A stretch of DNA of 37,282 bases from a virus, in IMG/VR virus record IMGVR_UViG_3300046792_000149; one strand, 5' to 3'. The notes below the pieces were generated by a model. It saw nothing but the letters and a program-made list of their open reading frames with translations. It was not told the origin of the DNA and searched no databases. The translations under genes and the position numbers were made by a program. Positions 5,418 through 37,282 of this stretch are shown here, in pieces; the stretch's first letter is position 1; every line of letters starts with the position of its first letter.

Positions 5418-5810
5418 TCAAGCGACGGCCTCCCACTTGATCCCATGGCAATCGGCCCAGCGTCTCCAGCACGGCGTGGGCTGTAACACCTTTAGTTCCT
5501 CGCGCGGCCATTCCTTGAGCAGCTGCAACCCGAATCCCTGGCCGCGTAGTCCAGCCTTCACGTAGACCATCGCCAGCGTGCGCGGGTCGCGCCAGACAGC
5601 GAAGCCGACCAGCACGCCGCCTGTCTCGGCAACAGCAACACGCCCGCTCTCGAGCCACTCGTCCACCATCGGGCCGCATTTGGCTTCCCAGCCGCGCCAG
5701 GTCACGCCGTCGCGACGCGGCCAACGCACTTTGAGCGTCGTCTCGCGCACGAATTGGGATTCACCTCGAGCGCGACCGAGCGGGCGGATGACGACGGCGA
5801 GGTCATTCAC
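5418..5810 (-). CDS. GNAT-family N-acetyltransferase (130 aa, GTG start)
   Basis: Acetyl-CoA motif A: VYVKAGLRGQGFGLQLL (R/Q-x-x-G-x-G/A). The GTG start at 5810 overlaps the upstream stop as GTGA. Its own stop (5418-5420) directly abuts the terL ATG (5417). Confidence 0.7.
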   Translation of the reverse strand: MNDLAVVIRPLGRARGESQFVRETTLKVRWPRRDGVTWRGWEAKCGPMVDEWLESGRVAVAETGGVLVGFAVWRDPRTLAMVYVKAGLRGQGFGLQLLKEWPREELKVLQPTPCWRRWADCHGIKWEAVA

Positions 5811-11364: not shown

Positions 11365-11620
11365 GGCCCGCCTCGATGTCATCCGCGCACAGCTCCAATT
11401 GCTCACGGACCTCGCGCGAGATTTGGCCCATGAGGTGACGGCGCGCGACCCAGTCCCGGAGTTCTTTCGTCACCGACGGCTTTTCGGCGACCGCTTCGCT
11501 CGCAGATTCGGCGCAGTAGGCGTCCGCGCACTCTTGGCAATAGGCGGTTTCGTTCTCGTTGAAGTCTCGATCGCAGCCAGAGCAGCCAAGGGTCGGAACT
11601 TCCACTGTGACCGTCTTCAC
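11357..11620 (-). CDS. Cys4 zinc-ribbon-like protein (87 aa, GTG start)
   Basis: CSGC-x15-CQEC plus additional Cys. GTGA overlap with the upstream stop at 11617-11620. Confidence 0.45.
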   Translation of the reverse strand: MKTVTVEVPTLGCSGCDRDFNENETAYCQECADAYCAESASEAVAEKPSVTKELRDWVARRHLMGQISREVREQLELCADDIEAGHG

Positions 11621-11913
11621 GCCGCTCTCCGCGCGTTCCGCTCACGGATGGCCATGACCAGGGAGCGTGTCTTCGTCTCGCATTCGACCTGGACCACGGC
11701 CCGGGCCAGGGGGGACTGGGCCGCGGTAGCGCCGGCCGCCATGGTCGCCGCGACGAGCTCGGCCGCCTGGCGTTTTGTCAGGCCGCAGGTCAGAGCCGCC
11801 TGGAACACCTTGGCGGCCGTCCCGTCGACCTTTCTGGAACGCACCCCTGCGACCTGTGGGGAAATGGGCGAACCAACTTTATAATTGGTAAAGCACTTGC
11901 GCGATGTGGCCAT
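11617..11913 (-). CDS. Hypothetical protein (98 aa), first gene after the int-proximal non-coding region
   Basis: The ATG at 11913 is preceded by GGAGG with an 8-nt spacer. Possible HTH (LTKRQAAELVAA). Confidence 0.5.
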   Translation of the reverse strand: MATSRKCFTNYKVGSPISPQVAGVRSRKVDGTAAKVFQAALTCGLTKRQAAELVAATMAAGATAAQSPLARAVVQVECETKTRSLVMAIRERNARRAA

Positions 11914-11972
11914 AGAACCTACCTCCGTCCAACAACGACCCAAGGAGACGGCGCGCTGCAACCCTGAAACAT

Positions 11973-12035
11973 CCCCCGATGAGCAGCGAGGAGCGCGCGG
12001 CCGCCTTCTTCGATCGTCGTGAAACTCATCGGGGG
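11973..12035. repeat. Perfect 11-bp inverted repeat CCCCCGATGAG / CTCATCGGGGG with a 41-bp spacer
   Basis: 11973-11983 is the exact reverse complement of 12025-12035. The spacer contains the palindrome GCGGCCGC. It lies in the about 300-bp non-coding stretch downstream of int. Confidence 0.9.
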
Positions 12036-12209
12036 TATTGTCCAGTTTGCACGACGTTCGAATGCTTGCAAGTGGGAATTTCGCTTACAGTTGATACGAG
12101 AGAGCTATGGCGGCGGCTCCATAGTGTAACCGCTTGGAAACGCACGCATGTTCAGTATTGCGACCAGCAAAAAATCGTACTAGCGGGTTGACGGCCAGTA
12201 CAAGAATGG

Positions 12210-13175
12210 CTAGCGGCGCGTGCGATCGCGCTCGATGCCGCGCTCAAAAGTCTCACGAGCAGAGCTTAGATCGGTCGGCCTCGAGGCGACGTAATCGGCC
12301 GTCTGCTGAAGGTTCGCGTGACCTAGAATCTGCTGTAGTACCTCGATGCGCACGCCGCGCTCGACGGCCCGGGTGGCATAGCCTCGACGGCCAGAGTGCA
12401 GCGGTACGCGCTTCTCCCCGGCGGCGGGCTTGAGTTCGGCGCGTTCGGCGAGCCCGCGCCAGATCATAGACATCCAGTTGCGCGAGTAGGCGCCCCCCGT
12501 GCGCGGAGAACGCAGCACAAGAGGCGAGCGGATGTCTCGAGGCAGGGCGTCGATAGAAGCAAGCAGGCGGCGCGTGATGGGCACAGAGCGCGCCCTACGA
12601 CTCTTGGTGATGGCTGCGGGCAGGTTGATCTGCAGCCTCGCCCGGTCCACCCAGGAGTGCTCGAGTAGGCGTATCTCGGAATTCCTCAGCCCGGCATCGT
12701 TCGCCGCCAAGATGATGAACGTGTCCCGCGCCAGGTCCGACTCAAACAGGAGGTGTTCGACGTCTTCCTCGGTCGTGGCGCTCTCCCTGTGCTTCTTGGC
12801 CTTGAGTCTCTTCGCCTCGCACAGCTGGGGCACCGCGGGATACATCCCCTCGCGTTTCCCCCAGCGCACCATTGCGAGCAGGCAGGCCAGGACGGAGTTC
12901 AGCGAGGTCGCCGCCAAGTCGCTGCGCTCGACGCGGTAGGCGGTCCAGTCGGCGACCATAAGGGAGGCCACGTCACGCGAGCCCCAGCGCTTGATCAGCG
13001 GTCGCAGTAGGTGCGCGGACGTCACCCAGCCGGGACGATGCTGCTGTGATATCTCGCACGTCCTGTAGAGCTCGGCGACGGTGATAGACGGGCGCGTCGG
13101 CGCAATGCGCTCGGACAGCTCCGTTATGAGTCGTGCCTGCGCCGCTAGAAGCGCGCGCAGCTCTGCGTCGTCCAC
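12210..13175 (-). CDS. int: Tyrosine recombinase / phage integrase (321 aa, GTG start)
   Basis: The C-terminal catalytic box has LHSGRRGYATRAV (H-x-x-R) and ILGHANLQQTADYV (catalytic Tyr), with an upstream ...AGLRNSEI... Arg motif. The N-terminal SAM-like core-binding domain has typical length. Confidence 0.85.
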   Translation of the reverse strand: MDDAELRALLAAQARLITELSERIAPTRPSITVAELYRTCEISQQHRPGWVTSAHLLRPLIKRWGSRDVASLMVADWTAYRVERSDLAATSLNSVLACLLAMVRWGKREGMYPAVPQLCEAKRLKAKKHRESATTEEDVEHLLFESDLARDTFIILAANDAGLRNSEIRLLEHSWVDRARLQINLPAAITKSRRARSVPITRRLLASIDALPRDIRSPLVLRSPRTGGAYSRNWMSMIWRGLAERAELKPAAGEKRVPLHSGRRGYATRAVERGVRIEVLQQILGHANLQQTADYVASRPTDLSSARETFERGIERDRTRR

Positions 13176-13313
13176 CTGGCCACCCCCGGGGCTTCAGCGT
13201 CGCCAAAGCCGAGCCGTGAACTGTCGCGCCAATCTTCTGGCGCGTCTTGGTAGTTGTGTGTGCCCTTACGTCGGCCTAGCAAATGTCAGCTAGCGCAATG
13301 CACCAACGACACA

Positions 13314-13399
13314 GGTTTCGAATGTGCGATGACCGCGGTGTCAGTCCCGACGGTGACGCGTGCTTCGAAACCGTATGGGGCGTCGGTTACGGTTTCGGT
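13314..13399. promoter_or_regulatory. Three copies of an ACGGTTTCG(A/G)-type motif upstream of int
   Basis: GGTTTCGAA (13314-13322, +), TTCGAAACCGT (13364-13374, inverted) and ACGGTTTCGGT (13389-13399, +) sit in the 296-bp non-coding region between 13472..13657 and int. A TGTTCAC operator-like heptamer follows at 13418-13424. Confidence 0.35.
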
Positions 13400-13471
13400 C
13401 ACTGCGTCTTGACGCAATGTTCACCAACAATTCGCGAAAGAAATCGCCGCTCGCACGTTCAATGACGGGCG

Positions 13472-13657
13472 TCACGGTTCGTCGGGCGCATCGAGGCGAC
13501 GCAGGCCCAAGTCATCGTCGTAGAGCCAGGGGCGGCCGTCGGTGTCCAGATAGGCAATGACAATGATGTGCGGCGCTGGCGTGGGCGTCTTGCCCGCCGG
13601 TTTCCACCCTGGCTTCGGGATGGAGATCAAGCGCTGGTCGATGAATCGCGGTTTCAT
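13472..13657 (-). CDS. Hypothetical protein (61 aa)
   Basis: The ATG at 13657 overlaps the upstream stop (ATGA). The N-terminal extension in the track overlaps the upstream gene. Confidence 0.45.
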   Translation of the reverse strand: MKPRFIDQRLISIPKPGWKPAGKTPTPAPHIIVIAYLDTDGRPWLYDDDLGLRRLDAPDEP

Positions 13658-13968
13658 CGCGCCAGCTCCTTCGCGCGCGTGACGGGCTTGGCGTCGAGGA
13701 GAGGATTGATAACGCGGTATAGTTCTCCCGACTCGGCGCACGATTTAGCGACGCAATCAGACCCACATTCCTGCTCAGGAACGGCCTCCCATGCTGTCTC
13801 TGTTTCGAGGACCCCGTTAGGACTCTCGGTATCCATCTCCTTCAGGGAAAGCAAGAGATAACGATGGTGCTTGGTGCACCAGCCGCAGCCTAGTATCCAA
13901 ACGACATCGCCCGCCCGTAACGATGCGAACGACGTCACCAACTCGCATTCCTCGCCGTTGATCTTCAT
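13654..13968 (-). CDS. Hypothetical Cys-rich protein (104 aa)
   Basis: ATGA overlaps at both ends. Several Cys pairs (GCGWC, CGSDC..C). Confidence 0.5.
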   Translation of the reverse strand: MKINGEECELVTSFASLRAGDVVWILGCGWCTKHHRYLLLSLKEMDTESPNGVLETETAWEAVPEQECGSDCVAKSCAESGELYRVINPLLDAKPVTRAKELAR

Positions 13969-14204
13969 CGCTTCCTACTCCTCACTTCCTGAATCCACGT
14001 CGCCGCTTCGGCCTCGCGTTCGGCCCGCGCTTTGTCGCGTGCCTTGTCGCGCGGTTCTGCGATGTGCCGGCCGGGACCTTCGAAAGCGCGTCGTCTAGCC
14101 TCCTTCACATCCTTGGCATGCGTTGGCGATACGCGCCGCTTTGCTTCCATGATCTTGAGGGCCGTGAGCGCAGCGGCGCCGAGGGTTGAATTGGGGTCGC
14201 GCAT
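13965..14204 (-). CDS. Hypothetical basic protein (79 aa)
   Basis: The ATG at 14204 is preceded by AGGAGG with a 4-nt spacer. C-terminus is Arg/Lys/Glu-rich and helical. Confidence 0.5.
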   Translation of the reverse strand: MRDPNSTLGAAALTALKIMEAKRRVSPTHAKDVKEARRRAFEGPGRHIAEPRDKARDKARAEREAEAATWIQEVRSRKR

Positions 14205-14215
14205 GGTTCCTCCTG

Positions 14216-14328
14216 TCGGCGTGTCGGGATTCGAACCCGAAACCCAGGTCGCTTACTGGACGTCTCCAGCCGCAGATTCCCGGGAGCCTGATCAATGGCC
14301 GCGGTTGTCCATTACCGCTCCCACGCCG
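14216..14328 (-). ncRNA. Atypical tRNA-like RNA (113 nt): canonical acceptor, D and T arms but no canonical anticodon arm
   Basis: Read on the minus strand. Acceptor CGGCGTG (14328-14322) pairs 7/7 with CACGCCG (14223-14217), followed by discriminator A. The D arm is GCGG-TAATGGACAA-CCGC (14318-14301). The T arm is TCGGG-TTCGAAT-CCCGA (14240-14224). The interior holds a 4-bp stem with an 8-nt loop ATTGATCA (14296-14289) and a 42-nt extra arm (14284-14243). It sits in a 150-nt intergenic gap on the same strand as its neighbours. Confidence 0.55.
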
Positions 14329-14354
14329 AATAGCCGGCGTAGCCGGCGGGGTGA

Positions 14355-14798
14355 CTAGAAGCCGAGCCGTTGATCTTCTGAGTTCAGGTCGAACCCGGCA
14401 GGATGAGACTTCTTCATCTCGGCCGAGAGCTTCTTCAGGTCGGCGACCGACATGCGGTTTTCGGCCTTCACGCCGTAGGTTGCCGGGTTGACGAATGCGA
14501 TCTTTTGCCGGCGGACGCCTTTGTACTCCTCGGTCTTGACCGTTACGCGGCAACGCCCGTGCGGCTCCTGTTCGTTGAACAGGTCCAGGTCTTCGCCCGA
14601 GAAACCAAGCGCGTGGCAGGCGTCCACCGTGCGATCGTACGCTGCGGCAGAAAGCCACCCGGTCCACTCCATGACGCTGCCATCCTCGATTTCAAACATC
14701 ATGACAGCGGCGGGCTTCTGGTCGTTTCCCAGCCTTCCCCACTGAATCCACTCGCTGCCGCTCTTGATCAGCTTCGCTTTGTAATCGCCGTCGTTCAT
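14355..14798 (-). CDS. Putative ssDNA-binding protein (DUF669-like), 147 aa
   Basis: The ATG at 14798 has a GAGGAGG SD with a 7-nt spacer. It lies immediately downstream of the exonuclease-annealase gene. The beta-rich core is followed by an acidic tail ending in an aromatic residue (DLNSEDQRLGF), as in phage and bacterial SSBs. Family assignment is from memory. Confidence 0.4.
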   Translation of the reverse strand: MNDGDYKAKLIKSGSEWIQWGRLGNDQKPAAVMMFEIEDGSVMEWTGWLSAAAYDRTVDACHALGFSGEDLDLFNEQEPHGRCRVTVKTEEYKGVRRQKIAFVNPATYGVKAENRMSVADLKKLSAEMKKSHPAGFDLNSEDQRLGF

Positions 14799-14800
14799 GT

Positions 14801-16321
14801 TCAGTCCTCCTCGCGGTCGGTCAGCTCCTCGCGGGCGTAGAGCCCGAGAGTCGCCGACGGGTAAACCATGCGCACGAGCTGCACCATCGCAGTCTTGCGC
14901 AACATCTCCTTGCGTCGCTTGTCCCACTGCCCTCGGTCGTCCCTCTTGCCTGGTCCCGGCGGCGGAGCGGGTTCGGCAGCTGCAATGCCCGCTGCTACCG
15001 CGTCATCGATCGAATACGTGAACGTCTCCGGCTGCGGGTGCTTCGCGTGCTTCGTCTCCCACGTCGCCTCAGTCATGCTCGACGACACGCGGCGCAGGTA
15101 GACGCAATCGGGGTGCTTCTCGGCGAGCACTTGAATCGTGTTCGCGGCCAGCGACGGCTTGCCGCTGATGACATGGAACATGTCCAGGCTCGTGAGCACC
15201 GGAAAGCCCATCTCCTTGCCGCGGATCATGGTTGCGAGGATGGCCTCGGGATTGCCGAACTTCGTGTAGAGCCGGCTGTTCATCATCGCCTTGGCCAGCC
15301 AGTACGCATCGGCGACGCTGTTTGGCTGCAATGCCGGGTTCGGCGCCGGCACCGCGAGAGCCTTGGTATCGTTCGACGCCGCCGGCTTTGGCATATCGAC
15401 CAGTTCGCCGATGGCTACGGTTTGCGGCTCCGACTCGGGCGCAATGTGCGTTGTCTCGGCCTTCACGCCGAAAACCTTCTCTGCCGCAATGACGCTACTT
15501 GGTACGTCTTCCACGGGTGGCTCCTCCAGTTTGACGATGGGTTTCACGGAACGACCGCTGTACAGGTCGTCGAAGTTGATCGGGACGTCTCGGCGCAGCT
15601 CAATCAGCTTGCGCGTGGTTGCATAGTCGAAGCCCTGGAGCGCCGCCGTCATTGCCGGCGTGAACTGCTTCTCCTCGAGTGCCTTGACGATGCCGGCCCA
15701 GTCGCCATTGGTCTGCAGCATCGCTGTGGCGCGCTTCTCGCCGACGCCCTGACAGCCCTTGATGTTGTCCGATGCGTCGCCCACGAGGGCCAGCCAGTCG
15801 CCCAGTTGCGACATCTTCACGCCGAACTTGGCTTCGGCTTCGAGCTCGGACCACACCGACCAGTCGTGCGTGCGCAGCTGCTTCACGCCGGGCCGCAGAA
15901 GCTGCATCAGGTCCTTATCGGCGCTGCAGATGGCGACGGGGTGCCCACGGCGGATCGCTTCCTCGCACGCGGTCGCAATGACGTCGTCGGCCTCGAAGCC
16001 CTCCGACTCCCAAAGCAGGTAACCGTCCGCGCGCAGGCGCTCCTTGACCCGGTCAAGCGTGTCGTAGAAGTCGTTGCCGAGCTTCTCCCGCTGCGCCTTG
16101 TACGTCGGGACAAGGTCTTTCCTCCAGCTCTTGCGCGAGTCGAGGCAGATGGCCGTCAGTGCGTTGGGGTCTTTCTTCGCGCACCGGGTGACGGCGTCGA
16201 GCGTGGCGCTGAATGCGACCGATAGCGGCCCGTTTTCGTTAGCTCTCCAAGCGGGATGGAACAGCGACGAAAGGTCTATCAGCACCACGCGCTGCTTCGT
16301 TTCGACGGCTGCGGCGGTCAT
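14801..16321 (-). CDS. Fusion protein: FEN/Pol I-type 5'-3' exonuclease + RecT/Redbeta-like single-strand annealing domain (506 aa)
   Basis: The N-terminal half has VVLIDLSSLFHPAWRA, YKAQR, GFEADDVIATA, SADKDLMQLL and LVGDASDNIKGCQGVGEKRATAML, which are 5'-nuclease and H3TH motifs. The C-terminal half has ILATMIRGKEMGFPVLTSLDMFHVISGKPSL and QWDKRRKEMLRKTAMVQLVRMVYP..LGLYAREE. The latter resembles Redbeta GPWQSHPKRMLRHKAMIQCARLAFG..GIYDKDE. The ATG at 16321 overlaps the upstream stop (ATGA). Confidence 0.7.
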   Translation of the reverse strand: MTAAAVETKQRVVLIDLSSLFHPAWRANENGPLSVAFSATLDAVTRCAKKDPNALTAICLDSRKSWRKDLVPTYKAQREKLGNDFYDTLDRVKERLRADGYLLWESEGFEADDVIATACEEAIRRGHPVAICSADKDLMQLLRPGVKQLRTHDWSVWSELEAEAKFGVKMSQLGDWLALVGDASDNIKGCQGVGEKRATAMLQTNGDWAGIVKALEEKQFTPAMTAALQGFDYATTRKLIELRRDVPINFDDLYSGRSVKPIVKLEEPPVEDVPSSVIAAEKVFGVKAETTHIAPESEPQTVAIGELVDMPKPAASNDTKALAVPAPNPALQPNSVADAYWLAKAMMNSRLYTKFGNPEAILATMIRGKEMGFPVLTSLDMFHVISGKPSLAANTIQVLAEKHPDCVYLRRVSSSMTEATWETKHAKHPQPETFTYSIDDAVAAGIAAAEPAPPPGPGKRDDRGQWDKRRKEMLRKTAMVQLVRMVYPSATLGLYAREELTDREED

Positions 16322-16707
16322 TTTCCAGTCCTTTGCTTTTCGATCAGTCCAGCGATATCGGGCGGCGTCCATCCCTCGGGCTTCGCTATTTTGGCGAGTC
16401 CCGGGATTCGCACCTTGGCCATGTTGGCGTCCGTAATGGCCTGAAACAGTGGCGCAGCGTCGATGCCGAGCCGAACGAGACCGCCGAGGGCATAGAACAG
16501 GTCGTCCAGGTAGCCGTCGGCCAGGTCCGCAATGTTCCTGCGCCGAATCGCCGTCTCGATTTCGCTGTGCTCGCTGTCCATCCATTCGAGCCGCAACGTG
16601 TGCTCGTCCCAATCAACTTGATCCTCGGTCAGCGGCGTTGACGGTTGCGGGCCGAAGAACTTTTCTTGAAACGCGCGGACTAGGGCTTGTGCGTCGGAGA
16701 TGGTCAT
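16318..16707 (-). CDS. MazG-like all-alpha NTP pyrophosphohydrolase (129 aa)
   Basis: E-x2-E ... E-x2-D style metal-binding helices: LRLEWMDSEHSEIETAIRRRNIADLADGYLDDLFYALG, then ITDANMAKV...KPEGWTPPD, typical of phage MazG/PRA-PH-like proteins. TAATG overlap with the upstream gene. Confidence 0.55.
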   Translation of the reverse strand: MTISDAQALVRAFQEKFFGPQPSTPLTEDQVDWDEHTLRLEWMDSEHSEIETAIRRRNIADLADGYLDDLFYALGGLVRLGIDAAPLFQAITDANMAKVRIPGLAKIAKPEGWTPPDIAGLIEKQRTGK

Positions 16708-16910
16708 TACCAGAACTTTCGAATGAAGTGATAAGCAACCCAAACGATTCCGGCCACAATGCCGACGTTGAACATGATGACTAACGGCGCAGTTATGGCC
16801 GCAATACCGAACACCGTTCTCTGCCGGCGCTCAATATTGCGGTGAATCTCGCGCATGTTCATCATTGGAGCATCCTTGAATGGGTCATGGTTTTTGAATA
16901 GCATTTTCAT
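16707..16910 (-). CDS. Small membrane protein (67 aa)
   Basis: One strong TM helix (FGIAAITAPLVIMFNVGIVAGIVWVAYHFI). Preceded by a 121-bp non-coding gap. Confidence 0.5.
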   Translation of the reverse strand: MKMLFKNHDPFKDAPMMNMREIHRNIERRQRTVFGIAAITAPLVIMFNVGIVAGIVWVAYHFIRKFW

Positions 16911-17031
16911 CCTTTCGTCATTTCAACCAAGTGCCGCCAACAGAAATCCCGCCATCTCGAAATCAGCGCGCCGAATCCGCAACGAATGAGCTTGATGGGC
17001 CGCGGGTCGCGATTGCGAATTGTGGGGCAGT

Positions 17032-35822: not shown

Positions 35823-37178
35823 TTAGGTCCAGAAAGCAACGCCGTTGTGGCAGGGAGCGTTGCACCCGACCGTTGCGTAATAGCCGGCGCGGCATTCGAT
35901 CGCGTCCTCGTCGGTCATGCGCAAGATTTTGTTTCCGTCCTGGCGCAGGATGTCGGGGATTTTCGAGGACCCCGCTCCATACGCCTTCCAGCTCGGCATT
36001 TCGAGCAGGAACAAACGGTTCTTCTGGCAGTACAGGTCAGGGAAAATCGTGATGTCCCCGAACTGCGTCTTGACCTGCACGCCGTCGAAGCCGATGCCCG
36101 CGGGCCCGGTTACCGTCGCCGGCCGGTACTTCGCTTGCCCCTGGAGCAGCAAGTTCGCATAACGGGTCGGGTTGATGTAGCCCATCTTCGGCTTGCCGCC
36201 GACGCGAGCGCACTCGGCCGCCAGCTTGATCAGGGCCTCTTCCTCCGACAGGGCAGACGCATCGAGGATGGTCCCGACGAGTCGCGAATCCGTCGAGCGG
36301 TCCGGCATGCTGAAGAACGAATCTCCGCCGCCGGGCTGAGCCGTCGGCAGCCACGCATCCATGCCCGCAACGCAGGTGCGCACCGGGCTCGCGTTGTCCT
36401 GTCGATCGCCACGAGCGAAGACCGAATCCAGGACCGCGACCGCAACGCCACCGAGGGAGTTGATGTTCGCGTTCAGGGCGAGGGTCTTCGTCGAATAGTT
36501 GATGCCCAGAACGGTCAGAAACCCGCCGGCCCCCTTCAGCGCGCCCGACGACTCGGTCAGCGCGAACTGAATGTCCATGTTCTTTTCGAACAGGTACATA
36601 TCCTCGAGGTCCTGAATGACGAGGTTCGCGGTCGCGACGTTGGTTGACGCATCGACAACGCCAATCTTGCCGAAGCCCGCCCGATACACCTTCGTGCAGA
36701 AGGAGTGCATCGTCGCGTCCATGATTCCGTCGACCTGGAGAACCATGTCGTCGTAGAACGTGCCGAGCTTGTCGCCAGCGGTCGCCAGCAACAGGCCGTC
36801 AATGGTCGCGCGGCCATAGTCGCGGAACCACGTCAACGTCGGCTGCGCAACGCTGGTAAAGCCAAACGTCGCGTCCTCCGACTTGGCCTTGACGACGCTG
36901 AACGTCGCAGAACGAGCCGGCGAGTTACCGATGCGCATGGGATAGGCAACGTTCTTGCCCGTCCATGCGACTTTCTTGATCATCGCGCCAAGCGGGCCCT
37001 TGGACCAGCCGACCGCGCCGAGAAAGTTGTTGTCGTAACGAATCTTGAGAGCGCCGACGAGGTTGTTGAACGAACCCCCGACGGTGGCGAGCGTGCCGAA
37101 CCCGAGCGCCCCGGCGAGCGAATCGAGCGCCGCGCCCGCGATGAGCAGCAGCAGAATGAAACCGAGAACATGGGACAT
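35823..37178 (-). CDS. Major capsid protein (451 aa); its 5' end lies in the terminal repeat (also seen as 1..23)
   Basis: A 451-aa ORF following portal and scaffold across the circular junction. The ATG at 37178 has a GGAG SD with a 7-nt spacer, and GC3 is high throughout. The N-terminus is unusually hydrophobic (MSHVLGFILLLLIAGAALDSLAGALGFG). Confidence 0.7.
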   Translation of the reverse strand: MSHVLGFILLLLIAGAALDSLAGALGFGTLATVGGSFNNLVGALKIRYDNNFLGAVGWSKGPLGAMIKKVAWTGKNVAYPMRIGNSPARSATFSVVKAKSEDATFGFTSVAQPTLTWFRDYGRATIDGLLLATAGDKLGTFYDDMVLQVDGIMDATMHSFCTKVYRAGFGKIGVVDASTNVATANLVIQDLEDMYLFEKNMDIQFALTESSGALKGAGGFLTVLGINYSTKTLALNANINSLGGVAVAVLDSVFARGDRQDNASPVRTCVAGMDAWLPTAQPGGGDSFFSMPDRSTDSRLVGTILDASALSEEEALIKLAAECARVGGKPKMGYINPTRYANLLLQGQAKYRPATVTGPAGIGFDGVQVKTQFGDITIFPDLYCQKNRLFLLEMPSWKAYGAGSSKIPDILRQDGNKILRMTDEDAIECRAGYYATVGCNAPCHNGVAFWT

Positions 37179-37282
37179 GACGAGACTCCGTTGGGAAAGG
37201 GGTGGACGAACCACCTGCTTTCGCGCTTTCAGAGTTTCGTCTTCGGTTTCGTCGTGTGCGCTACTACAGGACCAATCTAGAA
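37156..37282. repeat. Terminal direct repeat, copy 2 (identical to 1..127)
   Basis: See 1..127. Confidence 0.9.

Follow-up and report, generated by a model that had tools for sequence, protein, structure and literature searches.

A tRNA-like element without a decoding arm is one of several exchangeable cassettes in a lineage of uncultivated temperate phages

The IMG/VR virus record IMGVR_UViG_3300046792_000149, analysed here over its whole length of 37,282 nucleotides (nt; hereafter the window), carries on its minus strand, between two genes of the same orientation, a 113-nt element that folds like a transfer RNA (tRNA). We found that this element is a real and well-formed tRNA mimic that lacks a decoding arm, and that it is one of a small set of optional, exchangeable tRNA-like cassettes in an uncultivated lineage of temperate phages. 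These cassettes differ in most of their sequence and selectively retain the minihelix formed by the acceptor stem and the T arm. We tentatively favour the reading that the non-decoding element is excised from an operon transcript, which would punctuate the messenger RNA (mRNA) and release a stable tRNA-like RNA; in this reading we infer transcription, the cleavages and their consequences.

A tRNA fold without a decoding arm

Every helix that an earlier note on this DNA had proposed lies on the minus strand where that note had put it. These are a perfect acceptor stem of 7 base pairs (bp), CGGCGTG (14328-14322) with CACGCCG (14223-14217), and a discriminator A at 14216; a D arm of GCGG (14318-14315), loop TAATGGACAA and CCGC (14304-14301); a 4-bp GGCC/GGCT hairpin around the 8-nt loop ATTGATCA (14296-14289); a 42-nt extra arm (14284-14243) with the inner hairpin CTGGA-GACG-TCCAG; and a T arm of TCGGG (14240-14236), TTCGAAT and CCCGA (14228-14224). 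Along the minus strand the RNA would read CGGCGUG-GGA-GCGG-UAAUGGACAA-CCGC-GGCC-AUUGAUCA-GGCU-(42-nt arm)-UU-UCGGG-UUCGAAU-CCCGA-CACGCCG-A. RNAfold returned this structure as both the minimum free energy (MFE) and the centroid fold of the 113 nt, at -54.7 kcal/mol, compared with -41.7 +/- 3.5 kcal/mol for dinucleotide shuffles (z = -3.7; none of 200 shuffles equalled it). The fold was unchanged within 251 nt of context, in which an upstream GC hairpin also forms. The U at position -1 is able to pair with A73 to give an 8-bp stem. Within the T arm we found a match to the motif GGTTCRANYCC, GGTTCGAATCC (14237-14227), and the 8-nt loop AUUGAUCA (14289-14296, minus strand) includes the palindrome TGATCA and hence a GATC site.

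We compared these features with those that define known classes of RNA. As in canonical tRNAs, a 7-bp acceptor sits on a 5-bp T stem with a UUCRANY T loop. A 4-bp D stem with GG in its loop is also present, but the connector from acceptor to D stem is 3 nt long (GGA, 14319-14321), and both U8 and position 26 are absent. The 5-bp stem, 7-nt loop, U33 and purine 37 of an anticodon arm are not found in the element, and the variable region between the small hairpin and the T stem spans 44 nt, compared with 4-5 nt or, in class II tRNAs, at most about 24 nt. The element differs from transfer-messenger RNA (tmRNA) in its third acceptor pair, which is G3-C70 rather than G3.U70, and in its length, as 113 nt is too short for a reading frame. 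It differs from the Y RNA YrlA in that its ends form the acceptor stem itself, and there was no Rfam match. By their defining features the element is outside the tRNA, tmRNA and Y-RNA families. It does show the sequence features of t-elements, that is, the GGTTCRANYCC motif and a 7-bp acceptor placed between two genes on the same strand; with regard to t-element processing it has compatible features only, namely U at -1, A73 and no CCA.

Gene finders gave no standard call. Run on the whole window at default settings, ARAGORN reported no tRNA and no tmRNA gene. Rfam had no match at its gathering thresholds, and at E <= 10 on 351 nt it returned two chance-level fragments only, with no match to the tRNA, tRNA-Sec and tmRNA models. 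In its intron mode and at default threshold, ARAGORN drew a tRNA-Tyr(gta) with a 37-nt intron, and in-silico shortening of the long arm or removal of the small hairpin led to Ile(gat) or Gln(ctg) calls. All of these had anticodon stems with three of five pairs, on which ground we dropped the tRNA-Tyr with an intron. It is the acceptor, D and T arms that give rise to the forced calls; there is no genuine anticodon arm. The checks with ARAGORN, Rfam and RNAfold that the earlier note had called for thus reproduced the fold and gave no standard tRNA or tmRNA; its statement that a canonical anticodon arm is missing was borne out, since every scheme in the ARAGORN models reached at most three of five stem pairs. 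Its description of the molecule as tRNA-shaped but non-decoding is supported both by these forced calls and by the tetraloop-capped central arms of the cassettes in relatives (see below), and its proposal of a tRNA mimic stands as a description.

A genuine decoding tRNA is very unlikely and the least probable of the readings that we considered. Such a molecule would be either the tRNA with an 8-nt anticodon loop and a giant variable arm that the earlier note had suggested, which would make it a quadruplet or otherwise odd decoder, or a tRNA-Tyr with a 37-nt intron. The intron-mode tRNA-Tyr(gta) call, and tRNA-Ile(gat) after arm shortening, speak for it. However, no call pairs more than three of the five anticodon stem positions, and the Rfam tRNA and tRNA-Sec models stay silent even at E <= 10. 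The 4-bp stem, the lack of U8 and position 26, the 44-nt variable region and the tetraloops of the sister cassettes also argue against decoding. To our knowledge, the only introns in bacterial tRNA genes are group I introns, which are much larger than 37 nt.

We scanned for similar sites with a template in which a T-loop-like heptamer sits on a 5-bp stem and is accompanied by an acceptor with 7/7 pairs. The element is the sole site with a canonical T loop and a 7/7 acceptor in the 37-kb genome. ARAGORN-negative T-arm/acceptor sites numbered seven in 0.17 Mb of this phage group versus two in 1.10 Mb of unrelated bacterial DNA.

Exchangeable cassettes in the same slot of related phages

We reached related contigs (designated by L numbers) through homologues of the flanking proteins, and located type-B cassettes by synteny and not by a structure scan; the element of the window is the type A cassette. 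In L001, in which the upstream gene is 95% identical, and in L014, the slot of the element is occupied by an unrelated 72-73-nt sequence. This sequence has a 7-bp acceptor, a 5-bp T stem, the loop UGCGAAU and a discriminator A, and is followed by CGGAGG and ATG; the L001 copy has a one-base insertion within the acceptor strand. Nucleotide homology between the window and L001 (91%) stops at 14332, 4 nt ahead of the first base of the element. In L004 we observed tRNA-like cassettes in tandem (2197-2267 and 2318/2359-2426), each followed by a Shine-Dalgarno sequence and an ATG, the first of which opens a frame of 12 codons only. The first L004 element is a 71-nt homologue of the L001/L014 cassette with the T loop UUCGAUU. 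The second has two alternative 5' acceptor strands, which give a 68-nt or a 109-nt form, and its central hairpin, CCGAA-GACG-UUCGG, has a GACG cap like that of the inner hairpin in the 42-nt arm of the window.

Type-B elements have no D stem and a single central arm that is closed by a GGAA tetraloop, and are therefore incapable of decoding. In an alignment of three type-B sequences, none of the 17 pairs in the three helices is lost, and five are preserved by compensatory change; one of 500 shuffles scored as high, and slid controls were 39-49% paired. We also counted pairs over six minihelices, a count that is circular, as most of these were chosen by the pairing scan, and therefore descriptive only. 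The central arms of these cassettes of the relatives end in GGAA or GACG tetraloops, which argues that decoding is not the common function. The core common to all syntenic cassettes, that of the window included, is the 12-bp stack of acceptor and T arm and a T loop with U54, C56, G57 and A58. All of them have U at -1, A or G as discriminator with C as the next base, and no CCA. The GC hairpin that precedes the element is the same in L001 and L014, and L004 has CCGCC-UUCG-GGCGG at that place. A Shine-Dalgarno sequence (CGGAGG or CGGGAGG) stands directly behind the cassettes in L001, L014 and L004.

Some relatives have no cassette. In L013, which encodes a 79-amino-acid (aa) protein 92% identical to that downstream of the element, and in L095-L099, the 79-aa gene starts 2 nt past the upstream stop codon. 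Others have a different structure in the slot. L005 has a perfect hairpin of about 19 bp (1984-2027) after its 147-aa gene; a tRNA-like reading of this spacer was dropped, as its MFE structure is merely that hairpin. L002 has a 115-nt multi-stem structure (5445-5559, z = -3.4) with a counterpart in L003 (2940-3037). The slot structures of L005 and L002/L003 could be alternative processing or regulatory signals.

The conserved part of the cassettes is the acceptor/T-arm minihelix only, and for this reason a processing role in cis, which was absent from the readings of the earlier note, fits best with the conserved features. The presence of other structured signals in the same slot of relatives likewise fits an intercistronic processing site. 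RNase P, RNase Z and the CCA-adding enzyme require no more than an acceptor/T-arm minihelix for recognition, and U at -1 and an A or G discriminator followed by C, without CCA, are features that substrates of RNase P and RNase Z may have. In the mechanism that we propose, the element would be transcribed within an operon of the exonuclease-RecT (exo-RecT), 147-aa, 79-aa and integrase genes. The functional core would be the coaxial minihelix of 7 + 5 bp, which has a canonical T loop, is preceded by U at -1 and ends in A73 without CCA, and the D arm of the type A copy could build a tRNA elbow. Host RNase P would cut at 14329/14328 and a 3' tRNase activity, either RNase Z or RNase E with subsequent trimming, would cut after A14216, and the two cuts would split the polycistronic mRNA. 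The upstream recombination mRNA would then be left with a protective GC hairpin at its 3' end and the downstream mRNA with its Shine-Dalgarno site at the very beginning. The tRNA-like RNA of about 113 nt would be freed as a stable molecule and would probably gain a CCA tail.

Several observations weigh against this mechanism. Close relatives (L013, L095-L099) manage without any cassette, so it is dispensable. Type A occurs as one haplotype only, which at least six contigs share without change, and so offers no covariation by which to judge the D arm, the small hairpin and the long arm. The D arm and the 42-nt arm are needless for a pure processing signal and may serve a function in trans, and pairing of U(-1) with A73 could shift the cleavage by RNase P.

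The same observations bear on whether the element is a decaying relic of a phage tRNA gene that is functionless now, with the acceptor and T arms being the last to erode. The dispensability of the element in close relatives, the single type A haplotype, the one-base insertion in the acceptor strand of L001 and the tRNA array of a relative (L107, see below) would suit such a relic. We nevertheless consider it improbable, because five independent cassettes with unrelated bodies keep a perfect or near-perfect 12-bp minihelix, type B has five compensatory pairs and no broken ones, the layout of hairpin, element and Shine-Dalgarno sequence is constant, and the added arms are well-formed helices rather than eroded sequence.

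A structure that regulates translation or stability of the 79-aa gene from its 5' untranslated region, without excision, is more doubtful still, and we give it little credence. The Shine-Dalgarno sequence is one base past the discriminator, at the foot of the acceptor stem, the slot structures in L005 and L002 can pair with the Shine-Dalgarno region, and a base-paired 5' end could protect an mRNA. In the cassettes, however, the Shine-Dalgarno sequence is unpaired, and regulation in cis would leave the detailed imitation of a tRNA (T-loop sequence, 7 + 5-bp stack and discriminator) unexplained.

Operon context, integration and wider occurrence

Table 1 Features of the element and of the surrounding operon in the window.
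Feature	Coordinates	Strand	Basis or remark
tRNA-like element, type A cassette, 113 nt	14216..14328	-	MFE fold equals centroid fold
Acceptor stem, 5' strand CGGCGUG	14322..14328	-	7/7 Watson-Crick with 14217-14223; U(-1) at 14329
Acceptor stem, 3' strand CACGCCG and discriminator A (14216)	14216..14223	-	then C, no CCA
D arm GCGG / UAAUGGACAA / CCGC, GG in loop	14301..14318	-	RNAfold; ARAGORN forced calls draw the same arm
4-bp hairpin GGCC/GGCU with 8-nt loop AUUGAUCA, at the place of the anticodon arm	14285..14300	-	sequence and RNAfold
42-nt extra arm, outer CCCGGG/CCUGGG, inner CUGGA-GACG-UCCAG (14269-14256)	14243..14284	-	RNAfold
T arm UCGGG / UUCGAAU / CCCGA, GGTTCRANYCC motif inside	14224..14240	-	sequence, RNAfold, arm scan
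Exonuclease-RecT fusion gene, upstream in operon	14801..16321	-	Pfam 5_3_exonuc_N, 5_3_exonuc, RecT; PHROG exonuclease, RecT-like
147-aa gene immediately upstream of element	14355..14798	-	possible single-stranded DNA-binding protein, by inference
GC hairpin GCCGGC-UAC-GCCGGC, then UAUU (14332-14329), just 5' of element	14333..14347	-	sequence and in-context fold
Shine-Dalgarno sequence AGGAGG	14209..14214	-	one base (C 14215) past discriminator A 14216
79-aa gene, downstream, function unknown	13965..14204	-	then 104-aa, 61-aa and integrase genes
Tyrosine integrase gene, 1.04 kb downstream of element	12210..13175	-	Pfam Phage_integrase; PHROG integrase

The window has a perfect 127-bp direct repeat at its termini (1-127 and 37156-37282), which indicates that the genome was assembled in full as a circle of about 37,155 bp. 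The same phage, with 0-1 differences in the loci compared (about 1.0-5.2 kb, 11465-16704), is present in at least six contigs, which come from several metagenome samples. The genome encodes a large terminase, a replication initiator, HNH endonucleases and the tyrosine integrase, and most other proteins are without a family match. Upstream in the operon (Table 1), a single gene, with its limits taken from the identical contig L007, encodes the N-terminal and SAM-fold domains of a FEN-type 5'-3' exonuclease and, fused to them, a RecT-like annealing domain, and this fusion is retained in relatives L002-L005 and L101-L108. The 147-aa protein had no Pfam, PHROG or PDB sequence match. Its homologue P0005 ends in DDDIPF and the alternative gene in L013 ends in DDIPF; these tail motifs and the position after exo-RecT suggest a possible single-stranded DNA-binding protein. 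A terminator scan left the GC hairpin uncalled and made no other call around the element, and no promoter-like sites were found on either strand of the scanned region (11800-17000). One source labelled the highly charged 79-aa protein 'rubrerythrin', a name that neither Pfam nor PHROG supported and that looks spurious. A perfect 13-nt direct repeat, GCCGTTGATCTTC, at 13954-13966 and 14366-14378 flanks the element together with the 79-aa gene; about 0.05 such repeats are expected by chance in the 2.6 kb searched, and it could be microhomology from module exchange or a coincidence.

The element is the sole tRNA-like sequence in a genome with an integrase gene 1.04 kb downstream, and might thus be the core of the phage attachment site (attP) of that integrase, copying the 3' end of a host tRNA. 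In L002, too, a tRNA-Lys(UUU)-like sequence lies just past the integrase gene. The acceptor end of the element (C1-G72, A73) may resemble that of bacterial tRNA-Pro. We consider an attP core decidedly improbable, and the degenerate tRNA copy tied to integration that the earlier note had offered is disfavoured, because integrase similarity does not track cassette type. The cassettes of L001 and L014 are nearly the same and their integrases are 41% identical, whereas the integrases of the window and L014 are 58% identical and their cassettes are different. The full 5' strand and the D arm are kept but would be needless for attP, and the 5' strand of type B is preserved by compensatory change. 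Tandem cassettes in L004 also argue against attachment, as does a minihelix in L105 that lies by a methylase gene, where none of the five neighbouring open reading frames scanned is an integrase. Three genes separate the element from the integrase gene, with no room for arm sites between coding regions, and the integrase gene is itself flanked on both sides by 250-300 nt of non-coding DNA. The 3' half of the element had no exact match in 2.9 million viral contigs, the element had no match in E. coli genomes, and a repeat search around the integrase gene found no convincing attP arm sites.

The tRNA-Lys(UUU)-like sequence of L002 (7449-7545) is located 195 nt past the integrase stop codon and is ARAGORN-negative. 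It has an intact anticodon arm (CUUUUAA), a T arm, a 7-bp acceptor and a D region of about 42 nt, and may be the attP of that phage or another odd tRNA-like gene.

Distant relatives were reached through an alignment of the exo-RecT protein. On the minus strand of L105 (4052-4096) we observed a 45-nt bare minihelix, GCGCGCG ... UCGGG-UUCGAUU-CUCGA-CGCGCGC-A, between an 83-aa gene and the DNA methylase gene and two bases ahead of the methylase start codon. Relatives of this methylase gene were without the minihelix. The T arm and 3' strand of the minihelix, and the GGAACCA that follows, resemble those of the window element with a local alignment score of 35, as high as none of 2000 shuffles, and unrelated tRNAs scored 15-30 in the same comparison; we regard this likeness as suggestive only. 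In L107 (exo-RecT identity 49%) there is a genuine array of at least seven tRNA genes (46-1198), which places tRNA genes within the gene pool of this group. L107 also carries a tRNA-Arg(UCU)-like gene (46-116), in which 31-39 is an A.G mismatch and which default ARAGORN missed.

Searches for nucleotide relatives of the element in GenBank phages, plasmids and E. coli found none, with short T-arm or chance-level matches only; three plasmid matches were at chance level (E 0.3-3), and the one inspected (Rhizobium H75) holds no tRNA. Pattern scans of IMG/VR for the type A and type B cassettes, and for the 3' half either by itself or joined to the leader, returned nothing or L105 itself only. A metagenome scan with an alignment of the 147-aa protein gave one short contig with no sequence downstream. 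Scanning a genome collection with the exo-RecT alignment revealed no related prophage among chromosomal 5'-3' exonuclease homologues; these are apparently PolA-type and match at 26-39% identity over the N-terminal ~250 residues only.

These occurrences bear on the possibility that the RNA, once freed, acts in trans as a tRNA mimic, decoy or sponge and titrates a host factor that recognises the elbow or the acceptor end of tRNAs. Such a factor might be RNase P, the CCA-adding enzyme, or a nuclease or toxin of a defence system directed at tRNA. Host or phage tRNAs would thereby be protected, or the cell reprogrammed. The full elbow, with GG in the D loop and a canonical T loop, and the two extra arms go beyond the needs of a cleavage signal. 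The cassette occurs sporadically, is exchangeable and is situated in an accessory region beside recombination genes, where counter-defence genes are often found, and the real tRNA arrays of relatives suggest that tRNA biology is under selection in the group. However, the cassettes that replace the element have no D arm or anticodon-like loop, and that of L105 is a bare minihelix. As only the acceptor and T arm are shared, any target would have to read these alone. The best-known phage-relevant tRNA nucleases cut anticodon loops, the part that the element lacks, so a decoy for most such enzymes is a poor fit. We found no partner gene near the element, and its neighbours are without Pfam or PHROG matches. 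On balance, we consider a mimic that acts in trans possible but rather unlikely, and rate somewhat lower the broader proposal that this lineage encodes a family of exchangeable, non-decoding acceptor/T-arm RNAs that act in trans after excision and CCA addition. Such RNAs might be decoys or sponges for host enzymes or immune effectors that recognise the elbow or the 3' end of a tRNA, or chargeable minihelices. A function in trans would widen tRNA-based conflict between phage and host to anticodon-free molecules, and a decoy would be a phage counter-measure made from the top half of a tRNA rather than from a whole tRNA.

Comparison with known systems

The tRNA-like domain of tmRNA resembles the element in having an acceptor stem and a T arm and no anticodon arm. 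Unlike tmRNA, the element has neither a tag reading frame nor pseudoknots, and G3-C70 takes the place of the alanine identity pair G3.U70. Attachment sites whose core duplicates the 3' portion of a tRNA gene of the host are alike in being tRNA-derived sequences in temperate phages with a tyrosine integrase; the element differs from them in its full-length fold, and the 5' strand of the cassettes is kept by compensatory change. The small stable RNAs 'species 1 and 2' of phage T4 belong to a tRNA gene cluster and are reported to have tRNA-like termini, to be processed with the tRNAs and to have no known function; we treat them as a lead only. The Y RNA YrlA, non-coding like the element, also mimics the acceptor and the D and T arms of tRNA (PMC4201824). 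Its topology is the opposite, with the Ro-binding stem at the ends of the RNA, a loop that closes off the acceptor mimic and an internal tRNA-like module.

Excision of tRNA mimics has precedents. The tRNA-like/microRNA units of murine gammaherpesvirus 68 (MHV68) contain tRNA mimics that are cut by RNase P or RNase Z. The MALAT1 mascRNA is a tRNA mimic that is not aminoacylated, lets RNase P or RNase Z cut its transcript and accumulates as a small RNA (PMC8457004), much like the role proposed for the element. The mascRNA and the MHV68 units are eukaryotic and have no homology to the element. In E. coli, RNase P separates mRNA and tRNA in the secG-leuU transcript (PMC2241853, PMC2190699). Such co-transcripts likewise hold a tRNA-shaped unit and a protein gene in one transcript, as predicted for the element, but their units are real tRNAs that decode, which the element cannot do.

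By analogy, the element would work most like a t-element. The T-arm motif GGTTCRANYCC was defined in the t-elements of plant mitochondria (Forner et al. 2007, PMC1920247), which share with the element a non-canonical cloverleaf, this motif and an acceptor stem, and a position beside protein genes in longer transcripts. They have been proposed, and partly shown, to direct cuts by RNase P and RNase Z that make mRNA ends and a small stable RNA (PMC1920247). The t-elements are organellar whereas the element is from a phage, has a full D arm and a 42-nt arm and no sequence relationship to them, and its cleavage is predicted. If the element were excised by RNase P and RNase Z, a phage would be borrowing the tRNA-maturation enzymes of its host to split an operon transcript between recombination and integration genes, with a processing signal that can be swapped among phages as a cassette. 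tRNA finders would then systematically overlook a class of phage tRNA-derived RNAs that could be catalogued with a model of the minihelix, and these RNAs would be the counterpart in bacterial viruses of tRNA punctuation and t-elements.

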